Positions 1-14,156 of a stretch of DNA of 14,200 nucleotides are shown piece by piece. Both the position numbers and the translations under genes were made by a program. The DNA is from Promethearchaeota archaeon (GTDB lineage: Archaea; Asgardarchaeota; Lokiarchaeia; Sigyniarchaeales; SOKP01), in assembly GCA_018238625.1 (NCBI GenBank), contig JABCSY010000103.1, positions 1-14,200 of the forward strand. The letters are read 5' to 3'. The notes below the pieces were generated by a model that saw only the letters and a program-made list of their open reading frames with translations, was not told the origin of the DNA and ran no database searches. How positions within the stretch are numbered: the first letter of the stretch is position 1; each line of letters starts with the position of its first letter.

Positions 1-595
1 AGTAACGCTCAGCAATAGCGCCTCCTTTGGCAAATTTAGATACGGTTTCGGTAAGTTCGGGTCTAAGCTGCATCTGGTATTTCTCTCCAATTTGAGCGAC
101 AATTAATGCGCCAGAACGCTCTAAATAATCAAAAGCAACAACTCTTACTAATTCTTCAACTTCTTTTTTGGGAATTTCTAATTTAGTCGATAATTCTTCG
201 ACATCAAGGGGTCTACCTGCTGCGTAAAGAGCGCCTTCAATTAAATTTCTCCGTAGTTCTTTCAATTGTATTTTTAAATCTTCTTTCGTCATTTCTTGGG
301 GTATTTGGGGTTCTTCACCGTTAGTTCCTATAATTTCAGTGTCTAGTTCACTTAATCTTTCTTCTGAGGTTTCGGAACTTAATGTGTCTTCTTCAAACTC
401 TTCATTGGATTCTTTTTCGAGTTCTTCTTCGATATTCTCATCGATATCAATAGTACCCTCTAATTCTTCCGGAATCTTTTCTACTTGAGAAATTTCTTTT
501 TCTATTTCACTTATTTTTATTTCTTCCTTTTCTTCTTCTATTTCAGTTTCAATTTCAGGTAGTTTTTCTGGTTCTTTTTCGCTATTTTCGTTCAT
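1..595 (-). CDS. scpB: SMC-Scp complex subunit ScpB (kite), with ~110-aa acidic N-terminal extension; runs off the left edge of the window
   Basis: Absent from the ORF track; translated by hand from ATG at 595 with no stop down to base 1: MNENSEKEPEKLPEIETEIEEEKEE...LRRNLIEGALYAAGRPLDVEELSTKLEIPKKEVEELVRVVAFDYLERSGALIVAQIGEKYQMQLRPELTETVSKF. IEGALYAAGRPL and YQMQLRPE match the ScpB N-terminal winged helix. It starts 15 nt after the scpA stop. Confidence 0.93.
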   Translation of the reverse strand, partial: MNENSEKEPEKLPEIETEIEEEKEEIKISEIEKEISQVEKIPEELEGTIDIDENIEEELEKESNEEFEEDTLSSETSEERLSELDTEIIGTNGEEPQIPQEMTKEDLKIQLKELRRNLIEGALYAAGRPLDVEELSTKLEIPKKEVEELVRVVAFDYLERSGALIVAQIGEKYQMQLRPELTETVSKFAKGGAIAERY

Positions 596-610
596 AATTT
601 ATAGCCAAAA

Positions 611-1618
611 TTATTTTTTTAAGCTAATTGAAAAATTTTTAAAATCTTGTTCTTGTGATAGTATTAGTTTATTGCCCGTGGACAGGAACATAAGCGCCAA
701 AAACATTCTTATAAAAGCAAATTTTTTCCCAAGGTCGCTTTCTTCTTCAGTATTAATAATTTTTGTTATATCAAAAAAACTCGTTTCTTTACCATCAAGT
801 TGTATTTTCGATTTAATGCGGTTAAACCAAGAATTGTGAAGTTCTTCTACCGTTTGTTCCCTTCCACTAATATGCTTCAAAAGTTCTTTTGGTAATTGAG
901 CTTTTGATTTCGTTTGAATTCTTTGTTGTTTTATTTCGTCCCTCCGCATTCTCCGTCTTTTTAATTTTTCTTTCTTTTGCATAGTTTCGATTATGGCAGA
1001 CCTCATCGCGTCAAATAGTTCATCTTTAGTGGAAATCAGCATTTTTGGCTGAATAGGTTGCGGTAATGTCTTTGGAATTGTTCGAGAGTGTTTTTGCCGG
1101 AATTTCTCTAATTCTTCTTTTTTTTGAATTTGTTCTTCTTCTCTTATAATACTCGAAATTTTATAATGATGAAGTACTGCTGATGTTTTAAGAGCAATAC
1201 CTGCAATTTTATAGTTGATTAAATCTTCATGTAGCATGTTATCAAAAAATTTATCTACCAACGATGATAAATCATAGAACGCAACATTTGATTCTTTTGC
1301 GATTTCGCTATCTAATAACGAATTATAGGGGGGTTTTTGCCAAAATTTCAAATCAAATGATTGTTTATGAATTAGTGCAGGATCTTCTTCTTCGCCAGCA
1401 ATTAATTCTTCTTCAATGATTTCTTCCACATCTTCTTGTTCTTGAGTTCTATCGACAAATTCTGGATGAGAAGTTACCTCAGTTAGAAACTTCACAATAT
1501 CGTTCTTTTTGGACTTAGAAGGGATTTTAATCTTATTTTTGCTCGCAAATTCTCTTAACTGCTTAACGCTCCATTCCGTGAAGGCGTACTTCTTTTCTGA
1601 GGTATTTTTTTCAGGAAT
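611..1618 (-). CDS. scpA: Kleisin ScpA with predicted N-terminal helix-extension-helix (Rho_N/SAP-like) domain; start extended from GTG 1495 to ATT 1618 (335 aa)
   Basis: Kleisin N-domain YDLSSLVDKF...NYKIAGIALKTSAVLHHYK and C-terminal wHTH FLALMFLSTGNKLILSQEQDFKNFSI; lies between smc and scpB. The frame stays open upstream of 1495 until a TGA at 1627-1625 and reads IPEKNTSEKKYAFTEWSVKQLREFASKNKIKIPSKSKKNDIVKFL. Gene identity is firm; the start position is inferred. Confidence 0.85.
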   Translation of the reverse strand: MPEKNTSEKKYAFTEWSVKQLREFASKNKIKIPSKSKKNDIVKFLTEVTSHPEFVDRTQEQEDVEEIIEEELIAGEEEDPALIHKQSFDLKFWQKPPYNSLLDSEIAKESNVAFYDLSSLVDKFFDNMLHEDLINYKIAGIALKTSAVLHHYKISSIIREEEQIQKKEELEKFRQKHSRTIPKTLPQPIQPKMLISTKDELFDAMRSAIIETMQKKEKLKRRRMRRDEIKQQRIQTKSKAQLPKELLKHISGREQTVEELHNSWFNRIKSKIQLDGKETSFFDITKIINTEEESDLGKKFAFIRMFLALMFLSTGNKLILSQEQDFKNFSISLKK

Positions 1619-1624
1619 AATATT

Positions 1625-1630
1625 TCACCT
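1625..1630 (-). promoter_or_regulatory. Shine-Dalgarno-like AGGTGA upstream of the proposed scpA ATT start
   Basis: Minus strand reads AGGTGA AAT ATT ATT CCT; the motif ends 6 nt before ATT 1618. GGTGA is the typical archaeal SD core. Confidence 0.7.
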
Positions 1631-1644
1631 AAAACTTTTAATTT

Positions 1645-4600
1645 TTAATTTTCCTCTACATTTGAGGGTACATCTGGTAGTTCAAGTAATCTTTTGGCTT
1701 CTTCTTCCAAGTCTACGCTAAAGATATCGGTTATTCCACTTTGTTGCATGGAAACGCCATAAATTCGATCGGCATTTACAATATTTTCCTCTCTATGACT
1801 GATTACCATAAATTGTGCTTGGATCGCAAATTCCTTTATAACCACACTGACTCTATGCACATTTGGACCGTCTAAAGCGGCGTCAATCTCATCCATAATG
1901 TAAAATGGAGCAGGATAAAATTCTTGAACGGCAAATATAAAGGATAACGCAACCAAAGTTTTTTCACCCCCACTAAGGATTTCCAAACTAGATATACGTT
2001 TTCCACGAGGTCGAGCTTCAATAGTAACCCCTCCCTCAAACGGTTTATCTGGACGATCAAGAATCATTTTAGCCGATCCCCCGGGTGAAAGTTTCTGGAA
2101 AATGCGTGAAAACTCTCGATTTATCTCGTGATAAGCTTTCATGAAGGTTCTAGTCTTTTCCAATTCAATTTTATCAATTGCGTCAAGTATAGATTTCCTC
2201 TCGCGTTGAATCGTCTGTCTCCTCATATCAATTTCGTCGAATCGCTCTTTTACAGTATCGTATTGTGTAATTGCCTTTAAATTAACGGGTTCTATAGCTT
2301 TTTTCTTGTTATTGGCAGTTGAAATATCTGATTGCAAACCAGCTTCAGATAAGTCGTCAGTAACTGGGGGTAATGAGCCATAATCTTTAGAGCGTTGATA
2401 TAACGTTTCAATTTGATCCGTAGTGATAATTTTTTTAGAATCGTAATTATTCAATTTAGAGCGTTCCATAGAGTGGTCTGATTTAAGTTCATTCAATTGA
2501 TTCTGATAATTTTTTTGCTTTTTCCAAGATATATCCTTTCCTTGAATTTCTTTGTTTATCTCTTCTTGTTTGAGGCTTTTTTTATCGTTTTCTTGGTTTA
2601 GGTCATCTTCAACCTTTTCAATATCTTTTAATATGGATTCAACTTGTTTTTCGGCATCTTTAATATCTTCGTGTAATGATAGGATTTTTTGTTCTCTTTC
2701 CTTATTTTTATTTAATTCGTTTAATTTAGCTTGGGATTTGTGAAGATCTTTGTTTAATTTATTTAATTTTTTCTGAGCTCTCTTCTGGGCGTCTAACTCT
2801 TTGTTTTTATCCTCATGCATTGAATTTATTATTTGTTGTACTTCGTCAACTTTCTTTTGTACTCCGTCTACCTGAGAGTTATGTCCTTCTATATCTTGAT
2901 TGCAAGTTGTAATGTTTTTGCTTGCTTCGCCATTTTCCTTAGATAAATCTTCAATTGAATTTATAATCATCATTACGTTTTCAAGGCCCCTTAACTTATC
3001 CATTGTCGTTTCTAAATTCTTGTTCTGTTCATCAATTTGCGTTCTCAACTTTTCAGTGCTTTCCCAAAAATTATCTTTTTCAGAAAGACGGACTTCTATT
3101 TTTGAAACTATTGCGTCTTGTTCTAGCTTAAGATTCTTTATATTTTCTTCAGTATTGATAATTACTTTTTTCTTCTCTCCTATATTACTATTTAATTCTT
3201 TTATATTACTTTCAACTTCAATAATATCGTCATAGAATGATTGAATACCTTGTAAGTCTTGTAGTTTCTTTTGCAACCCATCTAATTCTATTTGTTTACC
3301 TTCAATTTTTTTTTTTATTATCGAAATATCGTCCCAATAGATGTTTTTTTGTTGCTTTAAGTTTTTAATCTCAACCTCAAAATTTTCTTTTTGCTTCTCT
3401 TCTATCGCCAAGTTCCTCTGCCCAAGCTCATCGTCAGATTTCTTAATTTTTTCATTAATTTCGCTAATTCTTTTATTAACATTTTCTAGCCTTCTATTAC
3501 AAGCAGAAAGATCTACTGAGTCGTGCTTGTTTTGAGTGCTAATCACGCTTAATCTATTGTCAATAGTATTTAAGTCGTTATTTTGAGAATTAAAATTTTC
3601 AGTGATTTCTTCGAGTTGTTTATATAAATCTTGACTTTTCGACATAGTTAACTTTCTTAAAGAAAGATATACATTTTCAAGGATCTCCATTAAATCTTGT
3701 ACAAAGCTATCAAAGGTTGAGGTAGATTCTTGTATCTCCACATCTGCTGATTCTTTTACCTTATCTATTAATTGATCTATGGTAGAATCTATGTTTTCCG
3801 TGAAGAGTCCTAAAGTTTGAAGGATAGATTTAAGCGTTTCAGACATTTCAGAAGTATCAGATCTTTCTTCAGCTTCAGAGCTAACTCCTTCAATAGTTTT
3901 CATAATATCAACTATGTCTAAAACAAATTGTTTAAAATTCATTCCGCTGGTTTCGATAGCTTCTGCGTTTGATTGTTGAATGTTACCCTTTATTGATTCA
4001 ACGGATATATTGATGTTTTGAGTTAACATATTTAAAATCTGAAGGATTCCTGTAATATCTTCTGTGTTTCTTTCGTATTCTTTTTCTGTACTTTCAATCT
4101 TCACCAATAAATTATCTTTCTCAGTTGAAAGTTCCCCCAGGCGCCTTTGAATATTTTCTTTTTTCTTATTCAAATTTAGTGATTCTTTATCAGTTTTAGT
4201 AAGGTTATCACTTAAAGTGGATGATTTTAAATCCAATTCACGCTTTTCACGTTCAAGATTTGTTAATTCTTTTTTAATTAATTTTAATCTAGTATTGATA
4301 TTTTCAATCCTAGTTTTGTTATCATAAATTTCATTTACGATAGAATCTTGTTTCATTAACAATAATTCTAGATTTTGTTCATTTTTTCTATAAGTAGAAT
4401 CTTCTTCTTTTGCTTGTCTTCTAAACTCGTTAATATCTTTAAGCAAAGCATCTCTTTTTTTCAGCAATTCTTTTAAAGCTTCTTCCGTATCTTTTCCTTT
4501 ACTGAGGTCTTCAATTTTATTTTCAGTAGCTAATTTTCTCAATTTTAATTTCTCAATACGGTTACTATTCATTTTAATTTCCGTGTTTAATGAGGATAGC

Positions 4601-6102
4601 ATAGAGTTGAAATCGGCTATTTTCGAATTTAATTGGTTCTTTTCATCTCGTAACCCGTTTATACCTTTTTCTAATTCTTTCTGGTTATCATTTTCCTTAG
4701 AGATTTTTACATTTAGGTTAGCTACTTCTTTTCTTATAATTTCCGCTTCCTTTTTTGTGTTTTTTATCGCTTCTTCTACGCTCTCAGAATCTCCTTTCAA
4801 TTTATTAAGCTCTGCTTCTAACTTTATTTTCTTCTCTTCATTTTTTTTAATGTTTTCTTTTAGAAACTTTAATTTGGCTTTAGTTGAGGAAATACTCTGC
4901 TTAATCGTTGAAATTTCTCGATTAAGTGTCGATTTTGTATTGTTATTATTTTTGATTTTAGCATCAATTTCTGCTTGTTTTTGTTGTTTGCTTTCGATTT
5001 CGCCTTTAGCCTCTTCAATCAAGTTATCTGTTTCCGTTATTACCTTTGATTCTGACTCAATTAAAGAATCGTAAGTCTGACCCTCTTCAAGTTCCATTTG
5101 TAAATTTTCTAAAGTTTTTATCTCTTGAGTTAGTTTTTCTATTGATTTATTAAAATTTTTTAAGGAAGTTTGATTCGAAGATTGTTGGGTTTTTAATAAA
5201 GTAATATTTTCGGTAATAATTTCTCTTTCTTTTTCTTTCTCGGATATGGTTTTTTGTATGTTTTCCATAACTAAAGTTTCTTGTTGTAGCAACTCTTCTT
5301 GTCTTGTTAATTTTTCCTGCAATTCTTCAATAATATAATTAGATTCCTCTATTTTGACCTCCAACTCTTCCTCTTCTTTCCTCAATTTTGAAATCTTTAA
5401 AGCGATCAATTGAGCATTGTAATACGAAACTTTTTCATCTAGCTCCTTCCAAGCTAAAGCATCGTTCTTTTCTTTTTCAACTTTTTTAAGTTGAGAAGAA
5501 ACTTCTTTAAAAATTGCTTCAAATTGTCCTAGATCACGCTCGGCTTTTTCTAACTCTTTCATCGTTGCGTCCTTCATTTCGTCGTACTTCTGGAGGCCAA
5601 TTAGATTTTCAATGAATAATCTGCGACCCACTTCGTTCATATGAGTCAATTCCACGATTTTTCCTTGCAAAACAAACTGATTGCTACCGTCAGGATCTAC
5701 GTTAGCTACAGCTAAAGCGTTAAGAATTTGTTGACGGGTAGCTTTTTTCCCATTCATTTTATAGCCGCCACCGCCACCTCTTTGTATAGTTCGACTAATT
5801 TCAAAAGTATCAGTTCCGCCTGGAAATATTTTTTCGGAATTATCAAAATATAGAGACACTGTGGCTCTATTTGAAGGGTTTTTACCTCGAGAACCGGCAA
5901 AAATTAAATCTTCAAGACTTTTGGCTCTCATAGTTTTCTTGCTTAATCTACCTAAAGCAAAAGTTAATGCGTCAATAATATTCGATTTGCCGGCCCCATT
6001 AGGTCCTACGATGCATGTAAACCCTGAAGAGAGCCTTATAGTTACAGTGCGATCTCCGAAGGATTTAAATCCTGTCATTGAAATTTTTTTAATATAGGTC
6101 AA
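1645..6102 (-). CDS. smc: Chromosome segregation ATPase SMC, atypical (1485 aa, no canonical hinge); TTG start
   Basis: GFKSF, Walker A GPNGAGKSN, Q-loop FVLQG, PVNLKAI, signature LSGGEK, Walker B/D-loop YIMDEIDAALD, H-loop ISH; long coiled coil; directly upstream of scpA and scpB. Confidence 0.96.
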   Translation of the reverse strand: MTYIKKISMTGFKSFGDRTVTIRLSSGFTCIVGPNGAGKSNIIDALTFALGRLSKKTMRAKSLEDLIFAGSRGKNPSNRATVSLYFDNSEKIFPGGTDTFEISRTIQRGGGGGYKMNGKKATRQQILNALAVANVDPDGSNQFVLQGKIVELTHMNEVGRRLFIENLIGLQKYDEMKDATMKELEKAERDLGQFEAIFKEVSSQLKKVEKEKNDALAWKELDEKVSYYNAQLIALKISKLRKEEEELEVKIEESNYIIEELQEKLTRQEELLQQETLVMENIQKTISEKEKEREIITENITLLKTQQSSNQTSLKNFNKSIEKLTQEIKTLENLQMELEEGQTYDSLIESESKVITETDNLIEEAKGEIESKQQKQAEIDAKIKNNNNTKSTLNREISTIKQSISSTKAKLKFLKENIKKNEEKKIKLEAELNKLKGDSESVEEAIKNTKKEAEIIRKEVANLNVKISKENDNQKELEKGINGLRDEKNQLNSKIADFNSMLSSLNTEIKMNSNRIEKLKLRKLATENKIEDLSKGKDTEEALKELLKKRDALLKDINEFRRQAKEEDSTYRKNEQNLELLLMKQDSIVNEIYDNKTRIENINTRLKLIKKELTNLEREKRELDLKSSTLSDNLTKTDKESLNLNKKKENIQRRLGELSTEKDNLLVKIESTEKEYERNTEDITGILQILNMLTQNINISVESIKGNIQQSNAEAIETSGMNFKQFVLDIVDIMKTIEGVSSEAEERSDTSEMSETLKSILQTLGLFTENIDSTIDQLIDKVKESADVEIQESTSTFDSFVQDLMEILENVYLSLRKLTMSKSQDLYKQLEEITENFNSQNNDLNTIDNRLSVISTQNKHDSVDLSACNRRLENVNKRISEINEKIKKSDDELGQRNLAIEEKQKENFEVEIKNLKQQKNIYWDDISIIKKKIEGKQIELDGLQKKLQDLQGIQSFYDDIIEVESNIKELNSNIGEKKKVIINTEENIKNLKLEQDAIVSKIEVRLSEKDNFWESTEKLRTQIDEQNKNLETTMDKLRGLENVMMIINSIEDLSKENGEASKNITTCNQDIEGHNSQVDGVQKKVDEVQQIINSMHEDKNKELDAQKRAQKKLNKLNKDLHKSQAKLNELNKNKEREQKILSLHEDIKDAEKQVESILKDIEKVEDDLNQENDKKSLKQEEINKEIQGKDISWKKQKNYQNQLNELKSDHSMERSKLNNYDSKKIITTDQIETLYQRSKDYGSLPPVTDDLSEAGLQSDISTANNKKKAIEPVNLKAITQYDTVKERFDEIDMRRQTIQRERKSILDAIDKIELEKTRTFMKAYHEINREFSRIFQKLSPGGSAKMILDRPDKPFEGGVTIEARPRGKRISSLEILSGGEKTLVALSFIFAVQEFYPAPFYIMDEIDAALDGPNVHRVSVVIKEFAIQAQFMVISHREENIVNADRIYGVSMQQSGITDIFSVDLEEEAKRLLELPDVPSNVEEN
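2524..3336 (-). repeat. Three exact 90-codon periods in the SMC C-terminal arm (protein-level repeat)
   Basis: KNIYW, KDNFW, KNKEL and KDISW end at W923, W1013, L1103 and W1193 (codons at 3336, 3066, 2796, 2526; 270 nt apart). In-register KL (KKL/DKL/AKL/SKL) and Ile positions are retained. Confidence 0.75.
3670..4059 (-). repeat. Duplicated 56-aa helical module at the SMC midpoint (aa 682-737 and 756-811)
   Basis: Ungapped alignment of DITGILQILNMLTQNINISVESIKGNIQQSNAEAIETSGMNFKQFVLDIVDIMKTI with TLKSILQTLGLFTENIDSTIDQLIDKVKESADVEIQESTSTFDSFVQDLMEILENV gives 15/56 identities by hand count. Confidence 0.75.
4198..5073 (-). repeat. 97-98-codon periods in the SMC N-terminal arm (protein-level repeat)
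   Basis: Gly-containing breaks EGQTYDSLI, KGDSESVEEAI and KGKDTEEAL at aa 344, 442 and 539. KSTLNREISTIKQSISSTKAKLKFLKENIKK aligns in register with KNQLNSKIADFNSMLSSLNTEIKMNSNRIEK. The left boundary is approximate. Confidence 0.7.
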
Positions 6103-6220
6103 ATTAAAACTGCCATTTCTTTATGTTTTTTTAAAAATAAAGAATACATTCATATATTTATATACTAATACTCAGCATTTAAAAAAATAAGGTTGTGGTT
6201 TTTTAAGAGCATAATTGAAA

Positions 6221-7423
6221 TTAAAAAAGAAAATTGTTTTTATTAAAAATTGCGTCTAAAATGCTTTTTAATTGTCGCGGATTTAGCACCATGAAATAAA
6301 AATTGTAGTTTAAGATGTTGTCGGAAAAATATCTATAATCGTTTAGGTTATTTTTTTTAGAGGCGTTTAAAATTCCAATGTTTCTGAGTGTCGTAATTAA
6401 ATTTTTAAATTCTTCCATATCTTTTTCGTAATCAAATGATTCACACGAAACAAAATAAAGCTCTTTTAATTCCTTTATAGTTATGTAAAGATTTGAGTTT
6501 TTTAAGAAATGGTTCGATAGATTGTCTAAAAAGATTATTGTGAGTAATTCTGCTTCAGAAATATAAGAAAGCATGCTAAATTCATCTGTAGTTTGAAGCG
6601 AATCGAACTGGTTTCGAAGGATTTCAGAGATTTCTAGATTGTTCAAACTAACTTGTTGATTTAATACGGGATAAATTTCCCTTAATATTTCGATCCCTTT
6701 TCCGGGAACTGGCACATAATGCTCAAAAATTAAATCAGTTATAAATTCTACTAATTCCTTGTCAACTTCACGCAAAAAAGTTAAGGAAACTCTTTGTTTT
6801 AGAATGTCGAAAAGTTCTTTATATGAAAAATAATTTAATTTTTTCTTTAAGTCAAATTCACTTATAAGATCTAATGTTGAGGGTTTTAAAGCTTGATTTA
6901 CGGTAGCTAGAAAGCTAACGCTCGTATCTTTACCGTATTGCAAGAACTTTTTGAAGAATTCTGGTTCCAGATGCTCGATATTGTTAAAAATGAATATAAG
7001 ATTGTGATCAACTTTTCTACACGTTAGTTTAAATAGGTTCCATAGATTCGATAAATTCGAATTTATAATACTTTTAAAATTAATATTAATCTTATTTTGA
7101 TTTTGACCAATTTTAGTTAGTAACGAAATAATAATTTCATTGAGATTTTTTTCCCTACAATCAACTTGGATGTTTAAAAATTCAGTGTTCAAGTTAGATA
7201 AATCTCTAATAACTTTATTTATAATAACTTGCTTTCCAATTCCTTGAATTCCTTGATATAATATAGATAAACTAAAATCATCTGAAAATGAATCTTTTAG
7301 AATTGAAAATAGAGATTTTTCTTCTCTATTGCGATACAATATTTGGGGGGGGACATAATGTGCGTCAAATAAAGCTCGAGGCCCTACATAACTACTTTTA
7401 TTAACATTTGGTGTTGATATCAT
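6221..7423 (-). CDS. Orc1/Cdc6-family AAA+ protein with degenerate ATPase motifs
   Basis: N-terminal FDAHYVPPQILYRNREE, Walker A-like GIQGIGKQ, Walker B-like FIFNNIEHL, lid FSYKELFDILKQRV, C-terminal wHTH ELKELYFVSCE...LITTLRNIGIL. Confidence 0.85.
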   Translation of the reverse strand: MISTPNVNKSSYVGPRALFDAHYVPPQILYRNREEKSLFSILKDSFSDDFSLSILYQGIQGIGKQVIINKVIRDLSNLNTEFLNIQVDCREKNLNEIIISLLTKIGQNQNKININFKSIINSNLSNLWNLFKLTCRKVDHNLIFIFNNIEHLEPEFFKKFLQYGKDTSVSFLATVNQALKPSTLDLISEFDLKKKLNYFSYKELFDILKQRVSLTFLREVDKELVEFITDLIFEHYVPVPGKGIEILREIYPVLNQQVSLNNLEISEILRNQFDSLQTTDEFSMLSYISEAELLTIIFLDNLSNHFLKNSNLYITIKELKELYFVSCESFDYEKDMEEFKNLITTLRNIGILNASKKNNLNDYRYFSDNILNYNFYFMVLNPRQLKSILDAIFNKNNFLF

Positions 7424-7464
7424 TTTTTTTATTTTTTATTTTTTATTATTATTTTAAATTTTCA

Positions 7465-7472
7465 TATATAAA
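7465..7472 (-). promoter_or_regulatory. Candidate TATA box for the cdc6-like gene
   Basis: TTTATATA on the minus strand about 42 nt upstream of ATG 7423. The AT-rich context weakens specificity. Confidence 0.45.
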
Positions 7473-7590
7473 CCCCTCGGGGGGGATAGGTCATTGGAAC
7501 TAAAATCTTTTTAAAAATTAAAACATGAAACCAATTATCCATATAGAAAAAAAATTATAACCAAAATTAAAAAGTATGATGCTTAATTTC

Positions 7591-8406
7591 TTACATCTTA
7601 ATCTTTCTTACTTTTATTGAGTTCTTGTCAATAATCTCTTTAAATCGCAATTTTCTAAGTTTTTTTGGAAAGTCTAAATTAATATCGTCGAAAACACATC
7701 CACTGGAATCAATAGGACCTTCAATTACTCGTAACTTAGAAGGCGAAATATAATCTTTTATAAACGAAATTATTTTACTTTGTCCAGGAAATTTTCTTTT
7801 AAATAAACTTCCATAAGTATTGCAAGCTACTACAGGAATTCGATTTTCAAGCGCGCGTGCTTTTAAATATATTTCCCAGTTTTGGATTCCCTCCGCTCTG
7901 ATTTGCGTAGGGGAGAATAAAATCTCCGCTCCATTTTCAGCAGCCAGCCTGGGCGTTTCAAAGAAAGCCATATCAAAGCAAATTAAAATTGCAAAATAAA
8001 TTTTATTAAATGGAAATAACACTAACTCTTTTCCGGGTTCAAAATTTTGTCTTTCGTAAGAATATAAGTGGATTTTATCTTGTCTACCAATCTCTTCCCC
8101 GTCTTTATTAAAATAATAACTAGTAATTCTCGGTTTGATAGAATTTTTCCTTCTTTCCCAAATAGCTCCTGAGATTATACTTATACCGTACTCTTTAGCC
8201 AGATTTTTAATAAAGTTGTAATTATTTCCTCTTTCATTTTGTAAGTTTAGTTCTTTTCCGTTTGTTAAATTTACCCACCTTTCGGGTAGACATACAATGT
8301 CGCAGCTGTCAAATTCTTTGATTAATTTTTTTAATATTTCTTCTACTTCAAAATAGCATTTATCTCTTTCTTGGAAAACTTCTGGCTGAATACACGCAAT
8401 TCGCAT
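7591..8406 (-). CDS. Carbon-nitrogen hydrolase (nitrilase superfamily)
   Basis: Catalytic triad motifs CLPE, QDKIHL, ICFD; also RALEN and N-terminal MRIACIQ. Confidence 0.93.
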   Translation of the reverse strand: MRIACIQPEVFQERDKCYFEVEEILKKLIKEFDSCDIVCLPERWVNLTNGKELNLQNERGNNYNFIKNLAKEYGISIISGAIWERRKNSIKPRITSYYFNKDGEEIGRQDKIHLYSYERQNFEPGKELVLFPFNKIYFAILICFDMAFFETPRLAAENGAEILFSPTQIRAEGIQNWEIYLKARALENRIPVVACNTYGSLFKRKFPGQSKIISFIKDYISPSKLRVIEGPIDSSGCVFDDINLDFPKKLRKLRFKEIIDKNSIKVRKIKM

Positions 8407-9370: not shown

Positions 9371-10531
9371 TTGAAACCCATCGTTGCATTATCTTATTTT
9401 CATCGAAAAATCGGCCCACTAGTTTTTTATTCCTATCCAGATAGTATGCTAGACGATCAACTTTCAATCAGAATCGCAAACATAATGGATCAAACAGTCT
9501 CTGAAGGGTTTTTCACCCACTCGTTCGAGAAAAATAACTCAAATAATTATTACTTCGAAATTTCTTCAGATTGGGCACGGGGGAATAAAGACATGTTAAT
9601 GGTTTCAATTATCTTCGATGAACAAACTACTCAAGAAATCGAACAAATTGTGCATAAATTATGCTTAGAATTTTCAGAAAAGCTTTTAAAAACAGAAGAG
9701 ATTTTTGCTGCATTTTACATTTCCGACATTAATAACTTTGAAGAAGAAGATAAAGAGGTTATCTATAAATACAATGCTTTGGTTAAACTATGGGTTCAAG
9801 AATTATACTGGAATGTACTTGAAGATACTAGAGAAAAAAGCGAAGAAGAAAAGATTGCAACATTATTGAACAAAAAACACATGTTCCTGACACTAAAAAG
9901 GTTATCCAGAGGCCCAACTACGCTAGAGGGCTTAAGAGAATGGTATAATGACGCCTTTCCAGAATTAGATTTTAAAGAATTAATTGATACGCTTGTTAGA
10001 AAACAGTTTATCTTCATAAATCAGATTGGAATTGTAGAAAAATATGTATTACTACTTAAAGAGGTTAACGCTGAAAGAATCCCTCCCGATAGCGTCATAG
10101 AATACATCGACGAAACTCCTGAACTAATTGAACCCGAATTAATAGAATTATTACTTCCGAAAGTCCAAGAATTTTTTAGTAGTTATGAGAACAAAAGTAA
10201 GAAAGAATTAGAACAAGATACTTTTACATTATTTCAAATAGTATCTGACCCTAAAAAATATAATATACTTTCAGAATTAAGGCATGGGCTAATAGATAGT
10301 GATAAGCTACCAAAGTTAGTCTCCAAAACGACTTTAGACCATTTAAATTCGTCGTTAAATTTTCTAAAAAAACACGATATTATTGAAGAATTAAAGTTTA
10401 AAAATGAGAGTTACATCTTTTTAAAAGCAAATATCCAAATAACAACCGCATTCCCCGAATATTTAAGAAAATCCTTATCGAAAGAATCAAAACCCGTCGT
10501 AGCAAAAAAGCAAAAACCAAAAGGGAAATAA
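9371..10531 (+). CDS. Longin/uDENN-like domain protein (folliculin/SMCR8/NPRL2-like N-terminus) with probable C-terminal winged-helix domains; TTG start
   Basis: VALSYFHRKIGPLVFYSYP resembles the uDENN start of NPRL2-type proteins. YFEISSDWARGNKDMLMVSII resembles the ARG loop of folliculin/SMCR8. FKELIDTLVRKQFI and LNSSLNFLKKHDII look like wHTH. GGAG lies upstream of the TTG. Confidence 0.65.
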   Translation: MKPIVALSYFHRKIGPLVFYSYPDSMLDDQLSIRIANIMDQTVSEGFFTHSFEKNNSNNYYFEISSDWARGNKDMLMVSIIFDEQTTQEIEQIVHKLCLEFSEKLLKTEEIFAAFYISDINNFEEEDKEVIYKYNALVKLWVQELYWNVLEDTREKSEEEKIATLLNKKHMFLTLKRLSRGPTTLEGLREWYNDAFPELDFKELIDTLVRKQFIFINQIGIVEKYVLLLKEVNAERIPPDSVIEYIDETPELIEPELIELLLPKVQEFFSSYENKSKKELEQDTFTLFQIVSDPKKYNILSELRHGLIDSDKLPKLVSKTTLDHLNSSLNFLKKHDIIEELKFKNESYIFLKANIQITTAFPEYLRKSLSKESKPVVAKKQKPKGK

Positions 10532-12501: not shown

Positions 12502-13692
12502 ATGTTTGAAACAGAATTTTTACTTTTGCCGCTTCGAATTGACAAACACAATAAGGGATATGTAGATTTTTATATAGGTCCAAAAAAAATTCGTAAAATC
12601 GTTGACAATGAGGTTTTAACTTCACCAAACAAACTTCTAACCGATTGCAAAGCTTTACAAAAAGGTTTGTTTAAACAAGGTTACGATATAAAACGCGAGC
12701 GGTATATAGAGAAAATGTTAACGGCGATGAGGACTTCGATTGAAATCCTAATCGGAATCGATATTCCTTTTAAGGAGCAATTTTTAAGGCTATATGATGT
12801 AGTCTTACACCCAGTTAACGAATCTGAATTAGATAACTTAAAAGAAGAGATTAACACAGCGTATGGTGGTCTTGGAAGCTTAGAAAGACGAATAAACGAT
12901 TTAAAAGTTCAACGAACTGTTCCTGAGGGTAAAGTATCTGAATTATATAAAAAAGCTCTCAACATCACGAGAGAGCGAACTAAAGAGTTATTTGTTGATC
13001 TTTTACCTCAAAAAGAACGAATTGTTTTGGAATTAGTCAAAAATAATGATAAAGTAAAATGGAGTTATTACAATTGGTATTTGGGTAATTTTCGTTCCCG
13101 AATAGTGGTTAACCCAAATTATAATATGTATTGGACAGCGTTTTTGTCTGGTGCCGCACATGAGGGTTATCCAGGACACCACACAGAATTTGCTATCAAA
13201 GAAAAAGTGTTATACCGCGAATTAAATCAATATGAACACTCATTATTACTGATACATAGCCCTAAATTAATACTCTCAGAAGGGATCGCAGATTTAGCAA
13301 TAAATATGCTCTTTTCAAATCGGGAAGCAGTAGAAATTAGTTTACGAGAATTGTGCCCAGATTCATCAAACGAAGATTCTCTTGAAATAATGATGGCACA
13401 AAACAAAGTAAAAGGGAAAATAACACTTTTTTGGTATAATTTTGCATATCATGCTCTTATTGATAAATATAACGATGATGAATTAATGCAATATGGAACA
13501 AATTTTGAAGTTTTTAATAAAGAAACCATAAAAAATCAACTTAAAAGAATCTCTAACCCAGTTTATTCAAAAAACGCTTTTTTATATAACCTTGGAACCA
13601 ATCTCATAAAGCACAAATACGGAGACCCTCCTTCAGTTAAAGATTTTCGATATCTTCTCATTAATCCAATTTTACCTTCAGATTTAATATGA
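12502..13692 (+). CDS. DUF885-like putative zinc metallopeptidase
   Basis: AHEGYPGHHTE motif followed by downstream SEGIA (third ligand Glu) and C-terminal FLYNLG. Confidence 0.75.
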   Translation: MFETEFLLLPLRIDKHNKGYVDFYIGPKKIRKIVDNEVLTSPNKLLTDCKALQKGLFKQGYDIKRERYIEKMLTAMRTSIEILIGIDIPFKEQFLRLYDVVLHPVNESELDNLKEEINTAYGGLGSLERRINDLKVQRTVPEGKVSELYKKALNITRERTKELFVDLLPQKERIVLELVKNNDKVKWSYYNWYLGNFRSRIVVNPNYNMYWTAFLSGAAHEGYPGHHTEFAIKEKVLYRELNQYEHSLLLIHSPKLILSEGIADLAINMLFSNREAVEISLRELCPDSSNEDSLEIMMAQNKVKGKITLFWYNFAYHALIDKYNDDELMQYGTNFEVFNKETIKNQLKRISNPVYSKNAFLYNLGTNLIKHKYGDPPSVKDFRYLLINPILPSDLI

Positions 13693-13976
13693 TACTTCAT
13701 TGTATATGCATCGAAGAATTCCTTTCATAGTTTTTTTCATTTTTCACTGGAGCGTCTAAGACTAAACTTGATGATGTAAAGAATTTAGAATTGATTTGAC
13801 TAACATTTATAAAAATTACATTTAAAAATCCCCAAGAGCATGAGTTGGTTATCTTATGCTAATCACTTTTCACTTTTTTTAGGAGTTTAAATAAATTTTG
13901 TCTAATTAATAAATAAGCTTGAAATTAAAAAAAAATTAGTTAAATACAATTCACATAACAAACAAAGTGAGAAAAA

Positions 13977-14006
13977 ATGCCTGGTCATGACGGTACAGGA
14001 CCATAA
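13977..14006 (+). other. Micro-ORF MPGHDGTGP* (DUF5320-like N-terminus; micropeptide or gene remnant)
   Basis: ATG CCT GGT CAT GAC GGT ACA GGA CCA TAA, preceded by AGTGAG. Confidence 0.45.
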
Positions 14007-14009
14007 TTA

Positions 14010-14051
14010 GATGTCTATTACTAAGACATCATATATTTTCCTTTTTTTTTT
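14010..14051 (+). terminator. Hairpin plus T10 tract after first micro-ORF
   Basis: GATGTCT (14010-14016) pairs with AGACATC (14024-14030); T10 at 14042-14051. Confidence 0.4.
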
Positions 14052-14156
14052 AAATTGAGTAGCTTAAAAGTATAATGTAATATAATTAAATAGATCGGTT
14101 TCAAATTAAAGAAAAATGAGTTAAATTCTTTACAATTATTAAATGAAGGGAGCAAA

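Follow-up and report, generated by a model that had tools for sequence, protein, structure and literature searches.

A long Smc predicted to lack the hinge, with remodeled ScpA and ScpB partners and a degenerate Orc1/Cdc6 neighbor, in an order of Lokiarchaeia

Contig JABCSY010000103.1 of the Promethearchaeota archaeon assembly GCA_018238625.1 (order Sigyniarchaeales, class Lokiarchaeia) carries a Smc-ScpAB gene set whose Smc is very long and, by profile searches and structure prediction, devoid of the globular hinge, whose ScpA and ScpB partners are enlarged by N-terminal additions, and whose immediate neighbor is a degenerate paralogue of the replication initiator Orc1/Cdc6. The window analyzed here is the whole contig, 14,200 nucleotides in length, which belongs to a genome bin of 4.29 Mb in 201 contigs (97.9% complete, 7.6% contamination). 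The open reading frame (ORF) list and its translations place cdc6-like, smc, scpA, and scpB in that order and co-oriented on the minus strand between positions 1 and 7423 (Table 1). The initial annotation, made from the letters alone, had described this contiguous four-gene cluster, a very long Smc without a hinge, a ScpA with an extra N-terminal HeH-like domain, a ScpB with an acidic extension, and a degenerate Orc1/Cdc6; each of these descriptions was borne out, with the HeH-like domain lying upstream of the start listed for scpA.

The hinge is regarded as universal among SMC proteins and as one of their defining elements. Proposals for its function include dimerization, DNA binding, and service as a gate for DNA, and what it contributes to loading and loop extrusion is debated. 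An order-wide condensin-type Smc that combines a predicted lack of hinge with ordinary heads, a kleisin, and a kite provides a natural test of hinge function; the long Smc is the sole condensin-type protein in many genera, and genera with both forms offer an internal control.

Heads, Arms, and Apex of the Long Smc

The protein as a whole scores 580.6 bits against TIGR02168 (above its cut-off of 567.35) and 586.9 bits against the archaeal-type model TIGR02169 (below its cut-off of 729.4). Its heads match PF02463 (SMC_N) with an E of 2e-38 and find their closest Protein Data Bank (PDB) match in the Pyrococcus Smc head 5xei (E 1.7e-117), the center of the protein being covered by none of the matches in this PDB search. 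The Walker A (GPNGAGKS), signature (LSGGEK), Walker B (MDEIDAALD), and H-loop (ISHR) motifs are intact in the translation. The heads of long Smc proteins are 40-49% identical to those of ordinary Smc, nearer than any other paralogue's, and the Rad50 models of NCBIfam give 36-95 bits on the window's Smc vs cut-offs of 700-1087. By these comparisons, the heads and all ATPase motifs are shown to be ordinary and condensin-type.

The smc frame opens with a TTG (window position 6102) that directly follows an in-frame TAA and has no obvious Shine-Dalgarno site. A TATA-like, AT-rich stretch lies approximately 50-60 nt upstream of this TTG.

The unusual length of the protein, 1485 aa vs 1174-1206 aa in 21 extracted ordinary hinge-type Asgard Smc proteins, is accounted for by its center. 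When aligned by BLASTP with five ordinary Asgard Smc proteins, residues 1-510/540 of the long Smc correspond to ordinary residues 1-511/518, and residues 1069-1470 correspond to 754-1186; the ordinary hinge and its flanks (approximately residues 515-750) are exchanged for some 530 all-helical residues, a replacement that takes each arm strand from some 340 residues to some 575. The hinge profile PF06470 gave no match to the protein, even when the center alone was searched at E ≤ 10, a level at which the center resembled helical-repeat families only. In positive controls, the same profile detected the hinge of the SMC5/6-like paralogue encoded by the same genome (33.5-38.6 bits) and gave 111 bits on a 1206-aa Smc of the same order. 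The AlphaFold2 model of residues 580-980, built with an alignment of 18 orthologues (alignment A1), consists of two long helices connected by a single loop at residues 745-750, with a mean pLDDT of 81.8 (above 85 in the arms and 50-70 at residues 690-800). Foldseek searches of this model against the PDB returned helical hairpins, including those of the chemoreceptor 2ch7, the MukB elbow, and the Rad50 coiled coil 7zr1_C, and the hinge fold was absent among the matches. An ordinary hinge was thus found neither with PF06470 at E ≤ 10 nor in the AlphaFold2 model or its Foldseek matches, and the sequence profiles and the predicted structure together show the globular hinge to be absent.

At the apex of the modeled hairpin lies a tandem duplication, in which residues 681-737 match residues 755-811 over 57 ungapped positions (28% identity, 60% positives, E 2e-8). 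Conservation in alignment A1 peaks at the second repeat, and indels in this alignment fall in the loop between the repeats (residues 738-754). The apex is net acidic, and in 18/18 orthologues its hydrophobic fraction is 0.40-0.46 vs 0.23-0.32 in the adjoining arm segments. A zinc hook of the CxxC kind is absent, the translation containing no Cys in residues 681-811. Since the hydrophobic-rich make-up of the apex is more in keeping with a helical bundle than with a two-stranded coil, we infer, by analogy with known helical hairpins, that two Smc molecules may dimerize via their apex hairpins in a four-helix bundle.

Distribution and Phylogeny of the Long Smc

Homologues of the Smc center are found across the order. 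A query with the center matched 34 of 41 related genomes (its own included), with frames of approximately 1480-1500 aa where the contig permits and identities of 59-93% within the genus, falling to 25-36% in the order's other families. When the head was used to query 251 genomes of the phylum, 178 were matched; among the matches listed, identities of at least 67% occurred only in families f1 and f2 and in one odd genome, with frames of about 1447-1514 aa unless cut by the contig, and head identities of at most 50% were accompanied by frames of at most 1264 aa. In a big protein database, 171 relatives of the Smc center were found. PF06470 matched none of the best 120 of these, and among the listed relatives, which are named SMC or AAA ATPase and come from Lokiarchaeota or Promethearchaeota bins, those not flagged as partial are mostly 1469-1487 aa long.

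The occurrence of hinge-bearing proteins was surveyed with PF06470 in 61 genomes of the family, each at least 90% complete. Matches were obtained in 57 of these; cut frames aside, they lay in frames measuring either 1146-1174 aa (SMC5/6-like) or 1196-1203 aa, and the profile gave no match on the frames of about 1480 aa in the 61 genomes. The ordinary hinge-bearing Smc of about 1200 aa is present in genera g14 (4/4 genomes), g16 (2/4), g18 (1/1), and g73 (2/2, seen only as cut frames of 238 and 247 aa), as well as in g2 of family f2. It was found neither in the window's genus (0/20 genomes) nor in g12, g13, g15, g17, or g72. A head query at E ≤ 1e-20 matched 18 of 21 genomes of the window's genus, with a single match in each that was always the long form. 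The genome of the window itself, for which the initial annotation had raised the question of a canonical smc, yielded no ordinary condensin-type Smc, only the long Smc and the SMC5/6-like one. Two SMC systems are therefore present in this genome and three in some genomes of the order, and the long Smc is the sole condensin-type SMC found in this genus.

A quick tree built from 32 head sequences, with SMC5/6-like proteins as the outgroup, places the long forms in one clade with 100% SH-aLRT support and a stem of 0.84, and the order's Smc proteins of about 1200 aa form a separate clade, also with 100% SH-aLRT, that is not sister to it. The backbone of this tree is weak and carries a warning of long-branch attraction, the stem of the outgroup measuring 3.5 substitutions per site. 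The head sequences support the long hinge-less Smc as a single, well-supported clade confined to one order. A candidate occurrence outside the order was rejected: the long Smc of genome G220, from a distant Asgard family, is located on an 8.6-kb contig (C70, locus L041), is nearly identical to that of a genus of the lokiarchaeal order, with which it groups tightly, and accompanies that genome's own ordinary Smc, and is probably a binning contaminant rather than a product of gene transfer.

The other SMC loci of these genomes were also inspected. In three of them (G032, G177, and G174; loci L028, L029, and L030), the order's Smc of about 1200 aa is followed by a short ScpB with no scpA between, and weak PF02616 matches elsewhere in two of the three may represent the kleisin of this ordinary Smc. 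The SMC5/6-like operon of the window's own genome is located on contig C101 (L010:5983-11960) and comprises genes for a 429-aa protein without a family, an SMC-like protein (open frame of 1166 aa) whose hinge is weak, and proteins of 216 and 186 aa that have no Pfam match and are presumed to be the kleisin and the kite.

The Kleisin ScpA and Its N-Terminal Domain

The ORF list starts scpA at the GTG at position 1495 (frame 611-1495), and the frame remains open for 43 codons above it. At the protein level, the upstream stretch (…EWSVKQLREFASKNKIKIPSKSKKNDI…) shows conservation across genera g1, g16, and g18. In the window and in three orthologues, it lacks ATG, GTG, and TTG codons and contains AGGTGA or AGGTGT followed 4-7 nt later by ATT or ATA, such that a site of the AGGTGA type with ATT or ATA is common to four genera; the exceptions are one orthologue that also has a downstream ATG and another that starts at an ATG. 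In the window, the candidate start is the ATT at 1621-1619 or that at 1618-1616, about 25 nt downstream of the smc stop, with the Shine-Dalgarno-like AGGTGA at 1630-1625. RNA-library contigs of close relatives carry ATA at the place of GTG 1495, which is therefore not a conserved start. On this comparative evidence, scpA apparently starts at an ATT, a start that would cause ORF callers to miss the HeH domain and is of consequence for annotation, since it hides a domain from them. The proposal that the upstream stretch is a frameshifted tail of Smc or a fusion was rejected, because the Smc stop (1645-1647) precedes by 17 nt the in-frame stop that opens the scpA frame and because AGGTGA precedes ATT at normal spacing in four genera.

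The N-terminal segment was compared with the Pfam families of the HeH clan (PF12949, PF02037, PF10281, and PF07498). In the window, it resembles Ish1 (E 7.2e-4, 20.3 bits) and Rho_N (E 7.5e-4, 19.9 bits), both below cut-off. The corresponding segment of one orthologue scores 28.1 bits with Ish1 (cut-off 26.6) and 26.2 bits with HeH, SAP and SAP_new25 match in other ScpA orthologues, and the clan is represented in 5/5 of the motif-bearing orthologous segments. An AlphaFold2 model of ScpA from the ATT, built with 10 orthologues (mean pLDDT 70.7), begins with a helix at residues 19-28, an extended loop, and a helix at residues 39-50 (pLDDT 81-84), followed by an acidic disordered linker at residues 61-88 (pLDDT < 50). 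The clan matches and the modeled two-helix fold point to an N-terminal domain of HeH/SAP type, which is of a predicted DNA-binding kind.

Beyond the linker, the model continues with the N-terminal helices of a kleisin and a long helix and ends in a C-terminal winged helix. A family profile of ScpA finds the N-domain 6ivh (E 0.0068) and, at E 0.5-0.9, ScpA/Scc1 C-domains, and the top seven Foldseek hits of the model are C-terminal winged helices of ScpA/Scc1 (TM 0.68-0.80, with 4i99_C at 0.80). As the protein does not reach the cut-off of PF02616, it is a divergent kleisin, and the profile and model comparisons show that it has the usual kleisin N-terminal helical domain and C-terminal winged helix.

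A different N-terminus was observed in the long-Smc kleisin of genome G177 of genus g14 (L058:4686-4985), which begins MPKCPYCGKIFQRLSQHKCP and bears a zinc-finger-like motif.

The Acidic Extension of ScpB

The 3' end of the window's scpB (2-595) is lost at the contig end, and PF04079 matches from residue 118 over profile positions 2-74 of 160 (49.2 bits, E 5.6e-13). A complete ScpB of 280 aa, 92% identical, is encoded on contig C164 of the same bin; its domain spans residues 116-266 (PF04079, 116.8 bits), and its first 117 residues have a net charge of -30 and contain 37% Asp+Glu. In seven long-Smc operons in which the extension was measured, it is 113-174 aa long with a net charge of -22 to -68, and a like extension is implied for two more by their ScpB frames of 291 and 297 aa, a count that covers nine of the ten long-Smc operons, with that of G235 left out. 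Order-wide, the extension contains 22-45% Asp+Glu and is poorly conserved in sequence.

The C164 locus (L032:15111-16126) consists of this second scpB and the last 50 or so codons of scpA, matches window positions 3-759 with 92% DNA identity, and abuts an ABC-permease gene. Elsewhere on C164, a copy of the DUF885-like gene is 85% identical to window positions 12532-14091. These duplicates probably represent a second strain in the bin, whose contamination is given above, or a chimeric contig. In G007, a genome of the same genus, the 291-aa ScpB frame (L023:5148-6050) has no ATG, GTG, or TTG until about codon 166, and the acidic extension of this protein may, judging from its reading frame, depend on a non-standard start.

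Add-Ons in Long-Smc and Ordinary Operons

A kleisin N-terminal add-on is present in 10/10 long-Smc operons examined. Nine ordinary operons were sampled from other Asgard families for comparison. Eight of these have the order smc-scpA-scpB, their ScpA proteins being 218-265 aa long and their ScpB proteins 178-198 aa; the ninth contains a kleisin-like gene of 285 aa together with a masked stretch. In ordinary ScpA proteins, PF02616 begins at residues 22-61 (the five whose N-terminal region matches), and in ordinary ScpB proteins, PF04079 begins at residues 7-16 (8/8). The ScpB proteins encoded beside the order's own Smc of about 1200 aa (n = 3) are likewise 188-197 aa long with short N-termini.

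The initial annotation had suggested a test of whether hinge loss, the HeH domain of ScpA, and the extension of ScpB occur together. Such co-occurrence was upheld in part: a kleisin with an add-on and an acidic ScpB both track the long Smc, and the HeH domain itself is swapped for other additions in g14 and f2. Its proposal of a distinct condensin subtype agrees with a trait set that is stably inherited in one clade, in which the add-ons accompany the long Smc and are absent from ordinary operons. Dimerization and DNA gripping may plausibly have been "rewired together," as it also proposed.

The Cdc6-Like Neighbor

The Cdc6-like protein scores 34.6-39.5 bits against TIGR02928, whose cut-off is 181.3 and against which the three other Orc1/Cdc6 proteins of the genome score 378, 256, and 207 bits. 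The NCBIfam Orc1 models give 22-45 bits vs cut-offs of 181-501 (NF001624, 45.4 vs 354), and PF09079, which describes the C-terminal winged helix, gives 16.8 bits vs 25.1. Its Walker A reads GIQGIGKQ (residues 58-65), and its Walker B reads LIFIFNN, in which NN at residues 147-148 replaces the DE of Orc1. Among 11 aligned members from family f1, K or Q comes after GxxGxGK in the Walker A, except in g14, which has T; the Thr/Ser is replaced in 10/11 f1 members and in one of two f2 members, and the Walker B DE is lost in 13/13 members of the group examined (x-N in f1). A quick tree that includes four paralogues from each of two f2 genomes resolves four orthologous Orc1 groups, the fourth and degenerate one with 100% SH-aLRT. 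As this group includes f2 members, which also lack DE, the dead Orc1 paralogue is as old as the order. By these alignments and scores, the Cdc6-like protein is homologous to Orc1/Cdc6 and is not a standard member.

The gene is found in 56 of the 61 family genomes. Both genes were available on one contig in 36 genomes. In 33 of them (g1, g12, g13, g15, and g16), the cdc6-like gene precedes smc by about 0.1-0.25 kb on the same strand; one g18 genome has a gap of 1.2 kb, and the order is kept between proteins that are 47-60% identical. The linkage is real within family f1, and it may have a functional meaning. In g14, the gene is not beside smc, the Walker A Thr is kept, and the kleisin has the zinc-finger-like motif.

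Proposed Mechanism and Alternative Explanations

Considered jointly, the features described above suggest a Smc-ScpAB of this lokiarchaeal order that would be apex-dimerized, kleisin-anchored, and acid-gated, with the Cdc6-like protein as a candidate partner, a reading that we regard as somewhat probable. The Smc pair would be joined at the apex hairpins as a four-helix bundle, in the manner of chemoreceptors, instead of through a hinge, and the complex would still be an ATP-driven, kleisin-closed machine that holds DNA or forms loops. The DNA contact of the hinge would have moved to the kleisin N-terminal add-on, which would serve as a DNA anchor, and the acidic tail of ScpB, the acidic linker of ScpA, and the apex may act as built-in competitors that gate this anchor. 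In the most speculative step, the Walker-B-dead Cdc6-like protein, with its winged-helix-like C-terminus, would be a candidate site-recognizing partner or loader. The kleisin add-on, the ScpB tail, and the dead-initiator neighbor thereby supply concrete hypotheses on where DNA gripping and targeting went. The fullest version, in which the four genes specify one machine and the dead Cdc6-like protein recognizes sites at which it loads or positions an apex-dimerized condensin whose HeH anchor is gated by the ScpB tail, is improbable; if true, archaea would have an equivalent of ParB-dependent Smc loading, and the initiator-linked SMC loading of eukaryotes would have a prokaryotic precedent.

Several points weigh against the apex-dimerized, kleisin-anchored complex. 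The monomer model is merely a hairpin, and the hydrophobicity of the apex could serve an intramolecular fold-back. For the anchor, the ATT start is deduced from conservation and a Shine-Dalgarno-like site, the window's own HeH-clan matches fall below the Pfam cut-offs, and the HeH domain has a CPYC…H..C zinc-finger-like motif in its place in g14 and a Lys/Ser/Thr-rich basic tail of 85-95 aa in three f2 genomes. All of the traits trace to one origin on one branch, which makes their co-occurrence a single event. Several genera keep a hinge-bearing ordinary Smc beside the long one, and the long form need therefore not have taken every role. As to the Cdc6-like partner, its gene is 30-39 kb from smc in two g14 genomes, none of the four Orc1 paralogues is near smc in f2, smc has its own AT-rich, TATA-like upstream region, and a search of positions 5900-7800 for a repeated or origin-like binding motif found only short AT-rich repeats at chance level.

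Some of these points would be expected if the Smc-ScpAB were really hinge-less and its remodelings, together with the Cdc6-like neighbor, were unrelated, lineage-specific decorations rather than co-adapted parts, with drift or a general need for chromatin tethering accounting for the charged tails and a mobile HeH module, and with historical accident accounting for the gene order. The exchange of the ScpA add-on between lineages (HeH, zinc-finger-like, or basic tail), the single origin of all traits, and the unlinked Cdc6-like genes of g14 and f2 are in keeping with such an explanation. Against this, a kleisin add-on of a predicted nucleic-acid-binding kind is kept in all ten long operons despite the exchange of its type, and the ScpB extension stays acidic throughout the order while its sequence drifts. 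Both additions are absent from the ordinary operons of the same genomes and from those of nine other Asgard genomes, and the order of cdc6-like and smc has been maintained at the protein divergence noted above. Accumulation of independent decorations is thus rather unlikely in our judgment, and the co-adapted, apex-dimerized complex is preferred.

The long Smc could alternatively be a specialized paralogue, engaged in repair, tethering, or a defense of the Rad50 or Wadjet kind, with housekeeping performed by the SMC5/6-like or the ordinary Smc. Its coexistence with an ordinary Smc in g2, g14, g16 (2/4 genomes), g18, and g73, its long stem and its position apart from the order's ordinary Smc in the quick tree, and the action of hinge-less, long coiled-coil ATPases such as Rad50 as tethers would all accord with specialization. 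Nevertheless, among the SMC proteins found, the long Smc alone spans the order, and in most genera of the family it has no condensin-type companion; its heads resemble those of ordinary Smc more than any other paralogue's do, the protein passes the TIGR02168 cut-off, it has a kleisin and a kite of its own, its apex bears no CxxC hook, and the Pfam scan found no nuclease or defense gene within the cluster. A specialized role of this sort is accordingly improbable. An ordinary hinge too divergent for the profiles, set in a standard architecture, is largely refuted and very improbable, for although the hinges of SMC5/6-like paralogues score just 23-43 bits on Pfam, these weak hinges are still detected in 57/61 genomes, whereas the long Smc has no PF06470 match at E ≤ 10, an all-helical model with flanking arms above pLDDT 85, Foldseek matches without a hinge, and an apex that is a tandem duplicate of a helical unit.

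Features and Neighboring Genes of the Window

Coordinates of the cluster and of the regions discussed above are collected in Table 1.

Table 1. Positions in the window of the four-gene cluster and its remodeled regions.
Feature	Position	Strand	Basis
Degenerate Orc1/Cdc6 paralogue, 400 aa	6221..7423	-	Orc1 profile scores, motif alignments, tree
smc, 1485 aa, TTG start	1645..6102	-	PF02463, TIGR02168, PDB heads
Smc residues ~540-1068, helical stretch in hinge position	2899..4485	-	BLASTP mapping, AlphaFold2
Smc apex repeat 1, residues 681-737	3892..4062	-	Self-match with repeat 2, hydrophobic fraction
Smc apex loop, residues 738-754, acidic, variable length	3841..3891	-	Indels in alignment A1; AlphaFold2
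Smc apex repeat 2, residues 755-811	3670..3840	-	Self-match; alignment A1
scpA (kleisin), ~336 aa from the apparent ATT start	611..1621	-	Conserved upstream frame, profile, Foldseek
Predicted HeH/SAP-type domain, ScpA residues ~13-50 from ATT	1472..1585	-	Pfam clan matches, AlphaFold2
ScpB acidic N-terminal extension, residues 1-117	245..595	-	PF04079 start; C164 copy
ScpB core, first winged-helix part, cut by contig end	2..244	-	PF04079

Upstream of the cluster and on the same strand are genes for a CN-hydrolase and a HAD hydrolase, and farther along the window are those for a 386-aa protein without a known family, a DUF2095 protein, ribosomal protein L15e, and a DUF885-like protein (Pfam). 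The gene for the 386-aa protein (9371-10531, plus strand) has no Pfam match and keeps its position in two genomes of the same genus; the nearest Atlas clusters are unnamed families, mostly from Promethearchaeota (score 0.98). Scans of the window for tRNAs and with Rfam gave no match.

RNA-library contigs from relatives that are 90-99% similar, obtained in two runs of one study, cover smc, and one of the two runs also covers scpA up to position 1599, the stretch 1496-1599 above the listed GTG included, and the scpA-scpB junction. When these contigs were placed on positions 1-7500, the stretch 6001-7500 was without cover, a gap of a kind that proves nothing. The cover lends weak support to the expression of smc and scpA, as such libraries can contain DNA.

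Comparison with Known Systems

The closest known system is the Smc-ScpAB of Bacillus subtilis and Pyrococcus, with which the present complex shares ABC heads, a long antiparallel arm, a kleisin, a ScpB kite, and the gene order smc-scpA-scpB. It differs in its predicted lack of a hinge, in arms about 1.7 times longer in residues, and in the duplicated helical-hairpin apex, as well as in a kleisin that scores under the PF02616 cut-off and carries a HeH/SAP-type domain with an acidic linker, and in the acidic tail of about 117 aa on ScpB.

Rad50/SbcC and RecN consist of a head and a long helical hairpin whose tip mediates dimerization. They resemble the long Smc in being hinge-less, and a Rad50 coiled coil (7zr1_C) is among the fold matches of the Smc center; in contrast to Rad50/SbcC, the long Smc has no zinc hook, has heads far closer to Smc, and is accompanied by a kleisin and a kite rather than by Mre11. 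The cytoplasmic hairpins of chemoreceptors dimerize into a four-helix bundle. The long helical hairpin of chemoreceptor 2ch7 is the closest fold match of the Smc center (E 7e-5), but at 12% identity and a TM of 0.36-0.45, this likeness is an analogy only and carries no family assignment. The Cdc6-like protein, for its part, shares with archaeal Orc1/Cdc6 the AAA+ plus winged-helix layout and the length, aligning over its whole length, and differs in that its group lacks the Walker B DE and scores far under the cut-offs.

Homologues of SMC described as "hinge-less" have been reported in marine Actinobacteria from metagenome catalogues (PMC12153180). As far as the description in that source goes, they likewise have SMC heads and a coiled coil without a hinge or CxxC hook; compared by this description only, they differ in being bacterial and in that partner genes are undescribed in the available text. 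The lokiarchaeal protein has lengthened arms and remodeled partners, and nothing in the comparison indicates a common origin.

A search of the full-text literature found no published hinge-less Smc from Asgard archaea, although the supplements of surveys, which were outside this search, could list such proteins. Within the available text of the archaeal SMC surveys, hinge loss and long arms are not mentioned (PMC8665677; bioRxiv 10.1101/2024.01.07.573240), and the accessible portion of an Asgard replisome paper likewise makes no mention of the window's Cdc6 paralogue or SMC. The same surveys, in the portions available, distinguish canonical and SMC5/6-related categories and describe a possible third complex in some Asgard lineages, which is tied to a Nse3-like kite (PMC8665677; bioRxiv 10.1101/2024.01.07.573240). 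In the SMC5/6-related operons, to the extent that these sources describe them, TACK and Asgard archaea possess a complete second SMC complex, and the window's own genome has one on contig C101, which is hinged; the window's Smc differs in belonging to the condensin-type branch. Since this lineage belongs to the archaea closely related to eukaryotes, the variety of SMC complexes within it bears on the origin of the eukaryotic ones.

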